Virus record (IMG/VR): IMGVR_UViG_3300028453_000030
Direction: 5' to 3' (one strand)
Source: a virus
Lineage: Duplodnaviria; Heunggongvirae; Uroviricota; Caudoviricetes
Length of the DNA: 4,607 nt
Shown here: in pieces, positions 54 to 4,259 of the stretch
Position numbering within the stretch: the stretch's first letter is position 1
How the letters are laid out: each line of letters begins with the position of its first letter
Position numbers and translations under genes: made by a program
The notes under the pieces: generated by a model
What the model was told of the DNA's origin: nothing
The model's input: the letters and a program-made list of their open reading frames with translations, nothing else
Databases searched by the model: none

Positions 54-173
54 TTATGGTTGAATAAGCCACTCGATATCTGGTGCTACGGAAGTGTCCA
101 CACGGTTTAGCAGCACCCGATACTTTTTCCAGGCTTCCAGCAACAAGTTTTCTTCCTCCGTTGCATATACAGC
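54..173 (-). pseudogene. tfa: 3' remnant of a tail fibre assembly gene (tfa): C-terminal 39 codons only, no start codon
   Basis: Minus-strand translation of 57-173 is [39 protein letters not shown], then TAA at 54-56. It is bounded upstream by an in-frame TGA (174-176) and has no ATG/GTG. The motif [24 protein letters not shown] matches the C-terminus of phage lambda Tfa as I recall it; this was not searched. Confidence 0.6.
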
Positions 174-183
174 TCACCTTTTT

Positions 184-477
184 TCACCCACGATTAACCA
201 ACAGCCAGACCAGCAGACACGCCACCACCGGCACAGCAAAATCCATCAGGCTTGCCACATCCCATGCACGTGTATCAAAACCGCCCCACCACGGCATATT
301 CATACGCTTGCCATGCCCGAACATTTCAATCCAGCGATATTCTGCCTGGGTGTGTTCACGCGCAATGAAGAACGTACAACCGGCTATCGCCCCGTAAGCC
401 CAGTTCCCGGTAAAAAGACCAATCAGTAGCTGCGCAGCCACAGCACAAAGCGCATGAAGGAAAGGTGTTATATCCAT
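184..477 (-). CDS. small integral membrane protein (~97 aa, three predicted transmembrane helices); function unknown, candidate prophage moron
   Basis: ORF 184-492 on the track. I prefer the ATG at 477-475 (MDITPF...) because AGGA sits 5 nt upstream; the track's TTG at 492 and the ATG at 483 lack a usable spacer. Hydrophobic stretches ITPFLHALCAVAAQLLIGLF, AYGAIAGCTFFIA and VASLMDFAVPVVACLLVWLLV suggest three helices. The antisense plus-strand ORFs are low-complexity. I do not recognise the family. Confidence 0.55.
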   Translation of the reverse strand: MDITPFLHALCAVAAQLLIGLFTGNWAYGAIAGCTFFIAREHTQAEYRWIEMFGHGKRMNMPWWGGFDTRAWDVASLMDFAVPVVACLLVWLLVNRG

Positions 478-490
478 TTTCATCCTACCC

Positions 491-513
491 AATAAAACGG
501 GGCGCTCGGCCCC
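491..513 (-). terminator. putative rho-independent terminator after the 346-aa gene
   Basis: On the minus strand, 2 nt after the TAA stop (522-520) lies GGGGC-cgagc-GCCCC (plus 499-513, 5-bp GC stem, 5-nt loop) followed by GTTTTATT. The stem is short, so strength is uncertain. Confidence 0.4.
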
Positions 514-519
514 TTAATA

Positions 520-1560
520 TTATTTAGACGCAAGCGCCGCCTCAATTGCAGATAATCTTTGTCTTAATTCTGCGTTTTCTTCTTCCAGTGCTGTTATTCT
601 GTCATCTGACTCTCTGGCTACCTGAACAAGCAAGCCAGTAACACCAGAATAATCTACTGTGTAATAACGTTCACCTTCTTCACCTTCCGATCCGCTTGCA
701 CCGTCCTGATATTTCATTGCGGAACCTACAACTTCTGGGATTGCTTCCAGAGCTTCCTGTGCAATGACACCAGCATAGGGCATACCGTTTTCTTTAAGCG
801 TGTATGTATAGCCGTTCATTTTACGGATGCGGTCGGTTGCATTATCGATCACCTGAATGTTGTCTTTCAGATCCCGGTCGGAATGCTGGTTAAATGTGGT
901 GGCATGACATGCACCATTAACGCTTAACATATAGGTGTTATCGGTATTTTTCTGCGCATAGAACATATAAGCGCCACCATCAACACCGACTTCATAAACA
1001 ACAGGACGGCTGGAGTTGCCCCACAATTGAGCAGTAACACCAGCATAAGCGGTTCCCTGTGTGTTTAATGTCATGGTTGACCCATGATTGGCATATTTGA
1101 TCTGTAATGTGTCGGTGTAATCAAATTTAATAAGCGCGTTACTTCCACGCTTGCTGTATGACATAAGGCAGTTACCCATTTTGAGGTATCCGCTGTCACC
1201 GGGAAAAATCATCGTACCGCCATAAAGGTTGGTAAAGTCCCAGCAAATGTTTGTCCCGTTATCGTTCAGGTTAAGGCGCGCCATTGCGTTACCTGGACTG
1301 TCTATCCATTTTTTGAGGTATAGTTCGCAATACGCATCCTCAACACCTGCCGTCCTGTGAGTTGAGCGGAGTTTTCTCCCAAATATAGCTCCGCTAGTTG
1401 GCAATACCTGCTGATACCATGAAACAGACCAGTCACCAACGATTTCATCTTTGCTGTCTACATATAATTTTGTTGCGTAGCTTCCTTGATCGTTTTTTAA
1501 TTTGCTAACGTCGGATTTTAGCGTTTTGATGTCATCAGGAATTACTGTCGATGTAGCCAT
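520..1560 (-). CDS. tail fibre / tailspike-like protein with C-terminal intramolecular chaperone (peptidase S74-type, endosialidase-chaperone) domain
   Basis: 346-aa ORF with RBS GAGG 7 nt upstream of the ATG at 1560. Residues ~227-346 (plus 523-882) read SDRDLKDNIQVIDNATDRIRKMNGYTYTLKENGMPYAGVIAQEALEAIPEVV...YYTVDYSGVTGLLVQVARESDDRITALEEENAELRQRLSAIEAAL. This is the S-D-x-x-x-K ... IAQE ... terminal coiled-coil pattern of self-cleaving C-terminal chaperone domains of phage fibres (K1F endosialidase, T5 pb1). The N-terminal ~226 aa are beta-rich with a short coiled-coil-like start. Confidence 0.85.
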   Translation of the reverse strand: MATSTVIPDDIKTLKSDVSKLKNDQGSYATKLYVDSKDEIVGDWSVSWYQQVLPTSGAIFGRKLRSTHRTAGVEDAYCELYLKKWIDSPGNAMARLNLNDNGTNICWDFTNLYGGTMIFPGDSGYLKMGNCLMSYSKRGSNALIKFDYTDTLQIKYANHGSTMTLNTQGTAYAGVTAQLWGNSSRPVVYEVGVDGGAYMFYAQKNTDNTYMLSVNGACHATTFNQHSDRDLKDNIQVIDNATDRIRKMNGYTYTLKENGMPYAGVIAQEALEAIPEVVGSAMKYQDGASGSEGEEGERYYTVDYSGVTGLLVQVARESDDRITALEEENAELRQRLSAIEAALASK

Positions 1561-1569
1561 TTTTCTTCC

Positions 1570-1851
1570 TCACATCCAGCCACGAAGTTGATGCTCAACA
1601 GCAACCACGTATTCATCGAATATTGACGATATTTGCGAATCATTAATGATGCGCACGTTTACAAAATATCCGTCTTCCTTAACACATACCGGTTCGCCAT
1701 CTTCAGTCAGTTCTCCGGTTTCTTTGTACACATTACCTATCACGTCAATAAGAATATCATCCTGCATCGACTCGTCATCATAATAGCCAATGCTCTCCAT
1801 AAAGGCCGAAAAGTCGGCCCTGTCTGCAAATTTGAGTGTTAAATCTTTCAT
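1570..1851 (-). CDS. small acidic hypothetical protein (93 aa), translationally coupled to the tail fibre gene; possible fibre chaperone or accessory protein
   Basis: The ATG at 1851-1849 overlaps the stf TGA stop (1850-1848) as ATGA, and GGAG lies 8 nt upstream inside the stf 3' end. The protein is D/E-rich (MKDLTLKFADRADFSAFMESIGYYDDESMQDD...). It has no resemblance to lambda Tfa; family not recognised. Confidence 0.55.
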   Translation of the reverse strand: MKDLTLKFADRADFSAFMESIGYYDDESMQDDILIDVIGNVYKETGELTEDGEPVCVKEDGYFVNVRIINDSQISSIFDEYVVAVEHQLRGWM

Positions 1852-4244
1852 TTAATACTCTCCCCCATTTGCGCATCAGTTAATTCTTTATGCCAGAGAC
1901 GAAGATTTCTCAAATGGCCGAATAGATGACGAGTTCCCGATGTGGCTTGACCTCCAATTCGAATAAAGGTCCGTGTTTTTACGCCCGTCCACTCCGTTTT
2001 CATAGTTTTAGTAGCCTCACCGTTAGAAACTACTCGTTTAGTACCATCAGAATAAATATTAAAACCACCAATGAATTTTCGAACATCAGTTCGACCAGCA
2101 AACACACTAGAAACGTAAGTACTTGTCGACGCTTTATAAGTTTGTATATAAAGCTGACCGTAATATTTCTCAGTTGTGTTAAAAGCGTATGTAATTGACT
2201 CAATAGGTGGCACACCAGAAAAATCAAAAATACGCGGTGCTACATTAGGAGGAATATCGCCCCAATTTCTATTGACCTCGACAAGACACGTAAGCGGTCT
2301 ATTATAGATATTATTTTCAGTTGGGATCGTCACCATATCACTGGAGCGGGTTGCGGGTGCAGTTGTCGTAATAACAAAAGATGAAGCACATCCGCCGTTT
2401 TCAAATTGTGGTGTTGCAAGGTAAATATAATCTCCCGCTTCAGTTATACCACCTTTTTTCGGCGCATACTGAATCATTGCGCCAATTAAGGCTTCACCTT
2501 CAACAGCTTCTATAGTTGCCTCATAGAAAATCCACCCTGTAACCGGATCTTTAGTTGCAGTAGCTGCTATTCTATTGGCTGCTCCGCCAGTTTTTTCTAT
2601 TATCAGAGTTCCGAAAGTTAAATAAGCATCTCCTAAAAATGTATAAACCGACCCATCGTATTTTTCAAAACGCAAACGACAACGAAGACCATCAGGAGCT
2701 TTAACCCTGCATGAAACAGTGCAATACTTATTATCGCCACTAACATCAATCCCCCGGGATGCACTGCATGTATGCAGACTAAGTGCAGATGATTGTCCTG
2801 TCATATTATCTTTTGTTCGCATTTTGGCATATAAAAAACCAAATTCATCAACACCATTATTAGTTTTATCGATATTGCTGGTACTCGTCCATTCAGCGGG
2901 AGTATTGGATTTAACAAAATAGTTAGTGCGCTGTCCTTCAATCAATAAACCTTCTTTTTCAAATCGTGGCTCATCAATTTTAGCAACACTAAATACGCCT
3001 GATTTATTGATATATGTGGCAGTTGATGCGCGTTTAAACTTAACAACCTTGTCGCCAGGCATCGTTATTTCATCATCACCAATAACAATTTTTTTATATG
3101 ACGGCGAAAAGCCCGTAATCATATCCAGTGAATCGTTAAACGGTATCCACACATCAGGCAGTGGCTGTAAGACATATTTATACGGCTCTGCTGCCTGACT
3201 TGCATACTCTCTGGCTGCGTCTTCACTTGCTTTAGCTGCTGTCTGGCTTGCTGCCGATGCTTTCGCCGAGTTCGCCGCTGCAGTCTCGCTTGTCTTTGCA
3301 TTGGTTTCACTGGTTTTTGCCGCTTTTTGACTGTTGGCTGATGCAGTGGCAGAAGCAGCCGCCGCGCTTGCAGAACCAGCTGCCGCGCTCTCGCTTTGGG
3401 CTGCTGCAACCTGGCTGTTTTTCGCCGCAGTTTCGCTGGCTTTGGCATTCGTTTCGCTGGTCTTCGCTGCCGTCTGGCTGGACTTTGCGTTAGTTTCACT
3501 CGTCTTCGCAGCTTTCTGGCTGTTAGCCGCAGCAGTTGCTGATCCAGCTGCTGAAGTCGCAGAACCGGCTGCCGCGCTCTCGCTTTGGGCTGCTGCAACC
3601 TGGCTGTTTTTTGCCGCAGTTTCACTGGCTTTGGCATTCGTTTCGCTGGTTTTCGCTGCCGTCTGGCTGGACTTTGCGTTGGTTTCGCTCGTCTTTGCGG
3701 CTGTCTCGCTATTTTTCGCGTTGGTTTCTGATTTTTTGGCTGCTGTCGCGGAGTTTGCCGATGCAGTCTTTGAGGTCGCTGCCGCCTGTGCACTATTAGC
3801 TGCATTCGTTTCTGAGGTTTTCGCCGCGTTCTTTGATGATGCCGCTGCAGTTTCGGATTTCTTTGCCGCCGCTGCGCTCTGAGAGGCGGCTTCGGCGTTG
3901 CGTGCCGCTTCTTCCACCATTACCTCAAAACGACGCAATGCCTCCGGCATGACATCCTCTTCCGTCATGGCACCGAGAAAATCATTCAGCGTGCCTGGTC
4001 TGGAACCTTCATAGACGGTAATGGTCCCGGCATGTGAAGGCGGAAAACCTTCAACCAGCAGGGTGACGCTGTACTGGCCATACTCAACATCCATGCTGTA
4101 ACGCCCGGCTTCATCCGGATTTTCAGAGGCCACCGTATTCACCAGTACCGTGGTGCTGTTACGCTTTGCTTTGAGCTGAATAGTGCAGTTCTGTATTGGT
4201 TTTCCTGCACCGTCTTTCAGCACGCCTGAAATCTGTACTGCCAT
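1848..4244 (-). CDS. stf: side tail fibre protein (Stf-like, 798 aa): lambda-type N-terminal domain, heptad-repeat Ala/Ser/Thr shaft, divergent C-terminal receptor-binding region
   Basis: ORF 1848-4250 on the track. I place the start at the ATG 4244-4242 (MAVQISGVLKDGAGKPIQNCTIQLKAKRNSTTV...), which has GGAG 5 nt upstream; the track's GTG at 4250 would add two residues. The N-terminal ~115 aa closely match lambda Stf (MAVKISGVLKDGTGKPVQNCTIQLKA..., recalled). Residues ~117-346 are AK.SETN-type heptads. The C-terminal ~450 aa (plus 1851-3212) are unlike lambda Stf and end ...FIRIGGQATSGTRHLFGHLRNLRLWHKELTDAQM, reminiscent of a LamG/concanavalin-like jelly-roll C-terminus. Confidence 0.9.
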   Translation of the reverse strand: MAVQISGVLKDGAGKPIQNCTIQLKAKRNSTTVLVNTVASENPDEAGRYSMDVEYGQYSVTLLVEGFPPSHAGTITVYEGSRPGTLNDFLGAMTEEDVMPEALRRFEVMVEEAARNAEAASQSAAAAKKSETAAASSKNAAKTSETNAANSAQAAATSKTASANSATAAKKSETNAKNSETAAKTSETNAKSSQTAAKTSETNAKASETAAKNSQVAAAQSESAAAGSATSAAGSATAAANSQKAAKTSETNAKSSQTAAKTSETNAKASETAAKNSQVAAAQSESAAAGSASAAAASATASANSQKAAKTSETNAKTSETAAANSAKASAASQTAAKASEDAAREYASQAAEPYKYVLQPLPDVWIPFNDSLDMITGFSPSYKKIVIGDDEITMPGDKVVKFKRASTATYINKSGVFSVAKIDEPRFEKEGLLIEGQRTNYFVKSNTPAEWTSTSNIDKTNNGVDEFGFLYAKMRTKDNMTGQSSALSLHTCSASRGIDVSGDNKYCTVSCRVKAPDGLRCRLRFEKYDGSVYTFLGDAYLTFGTLIIEKTGGAANRIAATATKDPVTGWIFYEATIEAVEGEALIGAMIQYAPKKGGITEAGDYIYLATPQFENGGCASSFVITTTAPATRSSDMVTIPTENNIYNRPLTCLVEVNRNWGDIPPNVAPRIFDFSGVPPIESITYAFNTTEKYYGQLYIQTYKASTSTYVSSVFAGRTDVRKFIGGFNIYSDGTKRVVSNGEATKTMKTEWTGVKTRTFIRIGGQATSGTRHLFGHLRNLRLWHKELTDAQMGESIK
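3213..3902 (-). repeat. coding 21-bp (heptad) periodic repeat region forming the fibre shaft
   Basis: The protein reads as consecutive heptads (AKTSETN, AKSSQTA, AKASETA, AKNSQVA, AAQSESA, AAGSATS ...). The DNA shows recurring gctttggc / gtttcgctgg / ctttgcg units. Confidence 0.7.
3370..3704 (-). repeat. in-frame tandem duplication, period 189 bp (63 aa, nine heptads), about 94% identical over ~146 bp per copy
   Basis: Copy 1 at 3370-3515 and copy 2 at 3559-3704 align with an offset of exactly 189 bp and about eight transition differences. The protein segment AKTSETNAKSSQTAAKTSETNAKASETAAKNSQVAAAQSESAAAGSA occurs twice. Confidence 0.85.
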
Positions 4245-4259
4245 ATTCACTCCACAAAT

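Follow-up and report, generated by a model that had tools for sequence, protein, structure and literature searches.

Several small phage proteins act alone in the inner membrane to block a post-adsorption step of phage entry, among them T4 Imm, HK97 gp15 and P22 SieA, whose genes lie among or beside tail and ejection genes. Other accessory genes stand right beside the receptor-binding gene, such as those for T5 Llp and for Cor of phi80, N15 and T1, which are small outer-membrane lipoproteins directed at one receptor (FhuA). More generally, the slots that follow tail fibre genes, that separate a tailspike gene from int, or that lie between G and FI of P2 house exclusion and lysogenic-conversion genes, including cor, llp, gtrABC, oac and P2 fun(Z). 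Here, we analysed a stretch of 4,607 nucleotides (the window) from the Caudoviricetes record IMGVR_UViG_3300028453_000030, in which a small minus-strand gene encodes a 97-amino-acid (aa) membrane protein of the PHROG 1443 family between a tail fibre gene and a remnant of tfa. We report that, in phages, this family gene follows directly 3' of the receptor-binding gene, regardless of phage morphology and of the kind of receptor-binding protein encoded. Imm, gp15 and SieA resemble the small protein in size, in acting alone at the inner membrane, in gene position and, if our proposal holds, in effect; however, we detected no sequence or fold relation between them and PHROG 1443. These three proteins are lineage-restricted, whereas PHROG 1443 is phylum-wide and keeps an invariant motif, and gp15 and SieA are expressed from the prophage, whereas the PHROG 1443 genes are co-transcribed with fibre genes and stay at background in LB-grown lysogens. 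Llp and Cor share the position, but the small protein has no lipobox, is predicted to fold as a helical bundle and does not co-vary with the fibre.

The whole window is 100% identical to part of Escherichia coli SB0258h1 (NZ_CP071954.1) where it forms the right-hand end of a lambdoid prophage located at the DLP12 site. Along the minus strand one reads J, lom, stf, a gene for a 93-aa protein, a gene for a 346-aa fibre, the small open reading frame (ORF) and the tfa remnant, followed by appY and ompT. The small gene and its immediate surroundings comprise:

184-477, minus strand: coding sequence of the 97-aa protein, predicted to be a three-helix membrane protein (PHROG 1443, 'Ybl63'), with the TGA stop at 184-186 and the ATG at 475-477; RefSeq WP_000355602.1.
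483-486, minus strand: Shine-Dalgarno AGGA, 5 nt before the small-gene ATG, read from the sequence.
499-513, minus strand, with the tail GUUUUAUU at 491-498: intrinsic terminator with a 5-bp all-GC stem and a 5-nt loop, from the terminator scan and fold.
54-164, minus strand: C-terminal remnant of tfa directly 3' of the small gene, from the sequence and from RefSeq, where it is the pseudogene 'tail fiber assembly protein, missing N-terminus'.

A mechanical ORF call gives 184-492 on the minus strand (102 aa from TTG 492), and the start at ATG 477 is favoured because the PHROG 1443 alignment begins at residue 6, the homologues begin there too and RefSeq places the gene at 184-477. The match covers the profile at full length (E=3.3e-58, 194.8 bits; residues 6-101 of the 102-aa ORF against positions 1-96 of 97). 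A word-indexed search of 5.8 billion proteins returned 453 homologues, and clustering at 50% identity gave 432 representatives; every one is a stand-alone protein, roughly 90-130 aa long. Proteins 95-100% identical to that of the window occur in phage 21 (CPT_21_24, 'putative membrane protein'), in wild lambda-like isolates and in Tritos; UniRef names the family 'Ybl63', and source databases otherwise give 'hypothetical protein'. With a ratio of nonsynonymous to synonymous polymorphism (pN/pS) of about 0.10-0.12 among E. coli prophage alleles, 184-477 is under purifying selection and is a genuine gene, as the first-pass annotation, made from the letters alone, had supposed. That annotation had allowed for a plus-strand antisense gene instead, and the antisense ORFs 83-397 and 94-429 do remain open for 104-111 codons in the window. 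Nevertheless, these frames gain two to four stops in diverged homologues, the amino-acid conservation that crosses phyla sits in the minus frame, and RefSeq and all phage records annotate the minus-frame protein, so that the antisense reading is effectively refuted and has next to no chance of being right. Stops and protein conservation were used for this purpose because a codon-position test is uninformative for 83-397, whose third positions coincide with those of the minus frame.

The same annotation found no known family for the protein, and our searches found no characterised one. PHROG 1443 carries no functional annotation; Pfam gave a single, sub-threshold match (PhoR, E=0.08), NCBIfam and PADLOC gave none, a sequence search of the PDB with a 35-sequence profile returned nothing at E ≤ 10, and no significant fold match was obtained. 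Rows of the BFVD structure database naming DUF2585 and CAAX protease were rejected as noise (E>5, TM ≤ 0.5), the motifs of CPBP proteases, EExxxR, FxxxH and HxxxN, being absent. Nothing specific turned up in the literature under the family, its accessions, 'ybl63' or exclusion proteins encoded next to fibres.

The linkage to host-recognition genes holds in more than 20 contexts in which a receptor-binding gene precedes the family gene, frequently with a 4-bp overlap, and carriers include lambdoid, P22-like, P2/HP1-like and large virulent phages as well as phages bearing diversity-generating retroelements (DGRs). In lambdoid phages, the order stf, 92/93-aa gene, small gene is found in phage 21, Tritos, Lambda_ev087, the phage-plasmid PhiR41_1 and an Stx2k phage. 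P22-like podoviruses, Gally among them, carry the small gene between the tailspike gene and int, with a 4-bp overlap in JEP4, and in 611R6 the family gene lies beside an OafA-type (OafA/YrhL) O-acetylase gene. An Aeromonas P2/HP1-like prophage (locus L072) has a PF12571 fibre gene followed by the small gene, again with a 4-bp overlap, phiHAP-1 has the order tfa, small gene, sheath, and in Comamonas a gene for a 2520-aa J-like protein is followed by a 72-aa gene and then the small gene. In Desulfovibrio the family gene follows a tailspike gene with zero gap, and in Cobetia phage Carin-5 it lies between tailspike genes. It adjoins tail fibre or tail protein genes in Chelativorans and Leclercia and tail protein genes in Comamonas, Pantoea and Halomonas, and a further locus is an Enterobacter/E. 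coli prophage near ompW. At two DGR loci (L031 and L033, 4785-8054; Comamonas nitrativorans and Pigmentiphaga humi), the gene stands between the mtd-like variable-protein gene and avd. The virulent T1-like phage HC6 and four similar phages keep a truncated, unannotated remnant (residues ~41-93) directly after an 859-aa S74-type fibre gene (locus L080, 3965-4120), at the place where T1-like phages carry genes of the Llp/Cor type. A 42-aa family fragment from phage anhysbys is present in BFVD.

No conserved partner gene emerged from all-against-all BLAST searches of small neighbours or from Pfam and PHROG counts over 64 upstream and 64 downstream positions, beyond the 93-aa gene of E. coli lambdoids, whose homologues precede the small gene only in phage 21, PhiR41_1 and the prophage loci L003, L004 and L006. 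The family gene is a single-gene module without a conserved partner. Small proteins that are 77-99% identical stand beside unrelated fibres and tailspikes, and the motif of the family is far more strictly conserved than the fibres that accompany it.

The family is also widespread. It is carried by 1918 of 5426 complete E. coli genomes (35%; median 2 copies, maximum 7, with 57 copies on plasmids), by 73 phage records in INPHARED and by more than 568 IMG/VR contigs; the GTDB at one genome per species yielded 68 loci. Members, described as stand-alone proteins of about 95-110 aa, occur in alpha-, beta-, gamma- and deltaproteobacteria and their phages, and the GTDB genera include Escherichia, Leclercia, Silvania, Pantoea, Aeromonas, Halomonas, Comamonas, Acidovorax, Pigmentiphaga, Chelativorans, Devosia, many sphingomonads and Desulfovibrio. 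Non-phage chromosomal copies exist, some of them at the same locus across species of a genus: in Leclercia the gene is flanked by a Peptidase_M3 gene on one side and by a MetE-like gene with an ABC transporter on the other, and it adjoins a porin gene and PFOR in Silvania and pirin in Aeromonas, and neighbours ligA and other housekeeping genes in sphingomonads. Same-locus copies in Leclercia (L008, L015-L017, L020), in Aeromonas (L009, L011, L014, L019) and in Silvania and a Leclercia metagenome-assembled genome (L010, L013, L022) have longer, basic or Ser-rich C-terminal tails. Their retention at one locus suggests domestication.

At the protein level, AlphaFold2 run on a 35-sequence alignment predicts a three-helix bundle (helices 4-23, 26-52 and 74-96) with a mean predicted local distance difference test score of 90.6. 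The expectation of three hydrophobic helices agrees with the predicted number of helices and needs qualifying as to their hydrophobicity, since only 4-24 and 74-96 are strongly hydrophobic; the segment 25-39 is moderately so and runs on into an amphipathic polar stretch, and the phage 21 record gives two transmembrane domains by TMHMM. Mean pairwise identity is 38% in the helices against 63% in the 34-residue connector (40-73), a conservation pattern inverted relative to that of most small membrane proteins. Across phiHAP-1, Carin-5, the Aeromonas jumbo phage PS1, Desulfovibrio and sphingomonads, residues R40, E41, Q44, E46, W72, D79 and P83 are invariant and H8, R48, P62 and W63 nearly so, with Q16 also among the near-invariant polar or aromatic residues; the motif is thus conserved from alpha- to deltaproteobacteria. 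By helical periodicity we infer that the conserved residues occupy one face of each helix, and that H8, R40/E41/Q44 and D79 would lie at about equal depth near one membrane surface, under the NMPWWGGFD loop.

Topology predicted from the positive-inside rule is ambiguous. The loop averages 5.4 Lys and Arg per sequence, which places it in the cytoplasm, whereas the Arg-rich C-terminal tails of alphaproteobacterial members, together with the acidic N-terminus, indicate an N-out/C-in protein with a periplasmic loop, as does the TMHMM note in the phage 21 record. In the window the C-terminal tail is merely NRG. Neither a lipobox nor a signal peptide was recognized at the N-terminus, which begins MD and has no basic n-region; C11 lies in the context L-H-A-L-C and is replaced by A, I or V in homologues.

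In the window, the small gene is separated from the upstream fibre gene by 42 nt before the ATG, a spacer taken up by a hairpin and the Shine-Dalgarno sequence. The hairpin, GGGGCCGAGCGCCCC at 499-513 followed by the tail GUUUUAUU at 491-498 (minus strand), was recovered by both the terminator scan and the fold (local fold -16.9 kcal/mol, z = -1.8), in agreement with the terminator seen at first pass, and its exact sequence is also present in phage Tritos. The earlier failure to recognize a promoter was likewise borne out: the 42-nt spacer contains no sigma-70-like site, the region has two promoter-like sites against 3.3±1.7 in shuffled sequences, i.e. no enrichment, and the sole nearby minus-strand candidate (9/12 match) lies within the fibre gene, ~365-395 nt upstream of the ATG. 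The minus strand upstream of the 93-aa gene yielded no convincing sigma-70 promoter, and no minus-strand terminator-like site lies between 1 and 184, downstream of the small gene. A terminator-like hairpin, GUGGAGG-UACUG-CCUCCAC followed by UUUAUU, also lies between a tailspike gene and the family gene in Carin-5 (locus L079, 3900-3952); because this marine phage is unrelated, a hairpin before the small gene is not unique to the S74 cassette of E. coli.

Upstream of the spacer, on the side facing J, the window encodes:

520-1560, minus strand: 346-aa tail fibre with a C-terminal Peptidase_S74 intramolecular chaperone domain (Pfam PF13884, E=4.8e-14; PHROG 4563, E=2e-220).
1570-1851, minus strand: 93-aa acidic protein after stf, assigned by profile to PHROG 1361 (function unassigned).
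1851-4250, minus strand: side tail fibre Stf, with a phage_tail_N N-terminus and a C-terminal region resembling gene transfer agent (GTA) spike fibres (Pfam PF08400, E=1.6e-66; NCBIfam NF048003; PHROG 1419); RefSeq has the stf coding sequence at 1851-4226.

Comparison with related prophages indicates which part of this arrangement moves. The junction between the small-gene 3' end and the tfa remnant is identical in the window, L003, L004 and phage 21, and the content of the slot upstream of the small gene varies. This slot is empty in phage 21, L004 and Perceval, where the stop of the 92-aa gene lies 12 nt from the ATG and a strong Shine-Dalgarno sequence is present; it encodes a 234-aa protein in L006-type prophages, and in the window, L003 and Tritos it holds the gene for the 346-aa S74 fibre together with the hairpin. 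In the other arrangements AAAGGAGG occupies the same distance from the start as AGGA does in the window. Among the 80 closest IMG/VR copies, 36-38 have the hairpin, always at the same junction, ~36 have the 234-aa type and 6 the phage-21 type. The fibre and terminator thus form a cassette in a variable slot, with the small gene as the fixed element. The first-pass placement of the gene between the fibre genes and a vestigial tfa is therefore correct as to position, RefSeq having the tfa pseudogene directly downstream, and misleading as to insertion, since the junction with tfa is conserved and the fibre gene varies. The 234- and 346-aa slot proteins are alike over their first ~32 residues only (window 478-1569 against L004, L006 and L073), and these shared N-termini suggest a common attachment module with exchangeable distal domains, i.e. 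a branched fibre. The tfa remnant is not peculiar to the DLP12-site prophage, being found in phage 21 and other lambdoids (L073 4794-4900; L003; L004), and the 3' end of tfa was apparently left over when an ancestral exchange put a new stf-C, the 93-aa gene and the small gene in place of stf-C/tfa.

Published RNA-seq of E. coli LF82 under five conditions (Misson et al., PLoS Pathog 2023, PMC9928086; tables S1 and S4) bears directly on expression. LF82 is a strain other than the source of the window and has three copies of the gene, in Tritos (with the exact junction of the window), Perceval (phage-21 type) and Gally (P22-like); the values below are log2(fragments per kilobase per million + 5), with a floor of 2.32, for LB overnight and for macrophages at 6 h. 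The Tritos small gene, TRITO_22, is flat (LB 2.82/3.79, macrophage 3.29/3.55, log2 fold change 0.21, q 0.22), with 1-17 raw reads per sample and no change in any of the five conditions, whereas its upstream neighbours rise steeply: the S74 fibre TRITO_21 from 2.88/2.54 to 7.05/7.04 (log2 fold change 6.2, ~70-fold), the 93-aa gene TRITO_20 from 2.84/2.32 to 8.19/8.27 (7.85) and stf, TRITO_19, from 2.65/2.42 to 5.33/5.47 (5.37). Across the Tritos hairpin the signal accordingly falls from about 7.0 in the fibre gene to about 3.4 in the small gene, while J and the other Tritos tail genes remain at ~2.3-3.9. Where the hairpin is lacking, the small gene follows its neighbours, PERCE_24 (LB 3.19/3.79, macrophage 5.92/5.58, log2 fold change 3.0) tracking PERCE_22 and PERCE_23 and GALLYPH_17 (LB 3.75/4.53, macrophage 8.38/8.72, log2 fold change 4.9) tracking the tailspike gene. 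In LB, expression of the three copies does not exceed prophage background, and the list of morons drawn up in that study (Table 1, S1/S4; at least 5-fold above background) includes none of them. The small gene is thus not an autonomous moron in LB, and where nothing lies in between it is transcribed together with the receptor-binding gene; the hairpin terminates ordinary transcription, and the arrangement of the window is silent in the LF82 conditions. The window copy could be reachable only by terminator-resistant (Q-modified) late transcription.

The first-pass reading of the gene's position as that of a prophage moron finds no support in these data from another strain and five conditions. 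The gene has neither a promoter nor a downstream terminator and often overlaps or abuts the receptor-binding gene, and with the tfa remnant it forms a conserved junction next to which the fibre gene is the variable part. As separate observations on Tritos, stf, the 93-aa gene and the S74 fibre gene are up 40- to 200-fold in LF82 within macrophages while J and other late or tail genes stay at the floor, and the same pattern is seen for stf and the 92-aa gene in Perceval and for mnt and the tailspike gene in Gally. The Tritos fibre block behaves as an autonomous, condition-dependent transcription unit that ends at the hairpin.

These findings raise the question of whether the window gene is no more than a silent passenger, one that the inserted fibre cassette has severed from transcription and that contributes nothing to the prophage. 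The absence of a promoter, the terminator directly upstream and the expression of the Tritos copy (1-17 reads, log2 fold change 0.21 against 6.2 for the fibre) all speak for such a copy-specific loss. However, all 36 of 36 IMG/VR copies behind the exact hairpin are intact and their pN/pS, 0.12, equals that of hairpin-free copies, so that copies behind the hairpin are not obviously decaying. Moreover, the LF82 data do not include full lytic induction of Tritos, its other late genes being silent. In lambda, Q-modified late transcription reads through intrinsic terminators, and a passenger status of the window gene is on balance doubtful.

As for function, superinfection exclusion, which the first-pass annotation had put forward, is a reasonable hypothesis that derives mainly from position, and a generic inner-membrane block of phage entry ranks first among the readings that we considered, although we hold it tentatively and it may well be wrong. 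The protein would insert in the inner membrane, where its invariant interfacial pocket would engage an envelope component conserved across Proteobacteria and so block a post-adsorption step of phage entry in the manner of Imm, gp15 and SieA. It would be produced late in infection, along with the fibres, and some prophages would make it in lysogens too, given particular conditions, and its gene would spread by hitch-hiking on highly mobile receptor-binding modules. Residence in slots known for exclusion and conversion genes favours an accessory of this type, and the lack of a conserved neighbour is what one would expect of a protein that works alone. The retention of chromosomal copies at one locus speaks for a function in cell protection or in the envelope and against one in the virion, as a chaperone, in lysis or as a lethal pore. 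Phylum-wide invariance and indifference to fibre type speak against specific receptor masking and for action on a conserved envelope component; the masking of a receptor, also suggested at first pass, is unlikely in a form tied to the neighbouring fibre, given proteins 77-99% identical beside unrelated fibres or tailspikes and a motif shared from Desulfovibrio to sphingomonads, and exclusion, if real, must be generic. The three-helix immunity proteins of pore-forming colicins (E1/Ia type) are likewise proteins of ~100 aa in the inner membrane, encoded beside the gene for an envelope-attacking protein; the likeness is one of analogy only, as they act by helix-helix recognition of a specific pore domain.

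Several points weigh against such an entry block. Searches of PADLOC, Pfam and NCBIfam revealed no homology to exclusion families, and exclusion proteins usually evolve fast, whereas the motif of the small protein is invariant across phyla. The several copies found per E. coli genome are near-identical, so that a resident copy is evidently no bar to further prophages with the same gene. The background expression of the three LF82 copies in LB and the silence of the window-type copy in all five conditions (PMC9928086) make it doubtful that the window copy protects the lysogen. The topology signals, finally, conflict, with the loop charges pointing to the cytoplasm and the C-terminal tails and TMHMM to the periplasm.

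Ranked second, and rather unlikely in our estimate, is an effector of envelope glycans or lipid carriers, whose pocket would bind or modify undecaprenyl (pyro)phosphate-linked glycans or lipid II, or regulate the enzymes that use them, with the outcome that O-antigen, capsule or another surface polymer recognized by fibres or tailspikes is altered. Such a role is consistent with the linkage to polysaccharide-directed receptor-binding proteins (tailspikes, S74 fibres, the GTA-spike-like Stf), with invariant polar residues on helix faces and loop that resemble a ligand or active site more than a phage-specific interface, and with the tailspike-int slot of P22-like phages, which is the gtrABC site in P22. 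JEP4, Gally and 611R6 carry the family gene in this same slot, the last beside its O-acetylase gene, and the product shares a membrane location with the gtrABC and oac/OafA proteins; however, it has no similarity to GtrA, GtrB or acyltransferase_3, is far smaller and also occurs in virulent phages. To our knowledge sphingomonads lack lipopolysaccharide, and their possession of the family points to a target more general than this polymer. A holin-like protein, viroporin or modulator of lysis timing, i.e. a late protein that oligomerizes and depolarizes or permeabilizes the inner membrane or acts on the true holin, is improbable. The protein does resemble class I holins of the lambda S105 type in size (~100 aa), in its three predicted helices and in being made late, holin-endolysin cassettes often follow tail fibre genes (T4 t follows gene 38), the conserved H8, Q16 and D79 within helices could line a pore, and alphaproteobacterial members have basic C-terminal tails. 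Yet lysis cassettes are already present elsewhere in the lambdoid, P22-like and P2/HP1-like carriers (LysC in the Aeromonas prophage L072; those of lambda, phage 21 and P22 are established), there is no Pfam holin match, a charged C-terminal tail is almost absent from the E. coli protein, holins do not typically have an invariant soluble loop, and chromosomal copies stably inherited in housekeeping contexts are hard to square with a lethal pore. An endolysin-like gene lies downstream at a single locus, in Acidovorax (L025), among the more than 20 contexts, so that the gene is not located in lysis cassettes.

That the protein is anchored in the membrane and helps to assemble or mature the adjacent fibre or tailspike, in place of a displaced Tfa, is very improbable. 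The gene does occupy a chaperone position, after the P2-type fibre gene in the Aeromonas prophage, after tfa in phiHAP-1 and over the deleted tfa in lambdoids, and in several phages its translation is coupled to that of the receptor-binding gene. Against this role, proteins 77-99% identical accompany structurally unrelated receptor-binding proteins, among them S74 fibres with a built-in chaperone, chromosomal copies lie far from any fibre gene, and degraded remnants persist behind an intact S74 fibre gene in the virulent T1-like phages. We know of no fibre chaperone that is an integral membrane protein; Pfam gave no match to the Tfa/gpG-type families Caudo_TAP and DUF4376, and the small protein is predicted to be membrane-embedded, not soluble.

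Taken beyond the window, PHROG 1443 might constitute a hitherto unrecognised, pan-proteobacterial class of envelope effectors linked to receptor-binding genes, minimal inner-membrane proteins of ~97 aa in which the H/RE/Q/E/R/PW/W/D/P pocket binds a universal envelope component or acts on it chemically, a generalization to which we give a low chance. If it is true, phages of all three tail morphologies deploy an effector with their fibres and some bacteria have domesticated it, the target being, for instance, undecaprenyl (pyro)phosphate-linked intermediates or a core inner-membrane machine, and the family would stand for a new mechanism, not for one more exclusion protein confined to a lineage. 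In E. coli, few unannotated prophage genes are as common, and the family recurs beside the host-range genes of phages from Desulfovibrio to sphingomonad hosts. Whatever its role (entry block, envelope change or lysis timing), it is probably a general, portable accessory of host-recognition modules, which bears on host-range engineering, prophage-mediated phage resistance and phage therapy, and its tight linkage to receptor-binding genes deserves experiments. For the window copy the outcome runs counter to the first reading: it is no autonomous moron and is silent in the sole available transcriptome of the same arrangement, that of Tritos in LF82.

Further observations concern the remainder of the window and its host. 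A 189-bp tandem repeat at 3276-3710 in stf (2.3 copies, 85% match) codes for SETNAK-type repeats rich in Ala, Ser, Thr and Glu and is also the source of long spurious ORFs, in other frames as well as on the plus strand, e.g. 3119-3805 and 3334-3882. In E. coli SB0258h1, an internal stop interrupts the neighbouring nfrA, the gene for the adsorption protein of phage N4, which is annotated as a pseudogene (locus L001, 4236-7208), and an ISEc1 transposase gene lies upstream of nrfB.

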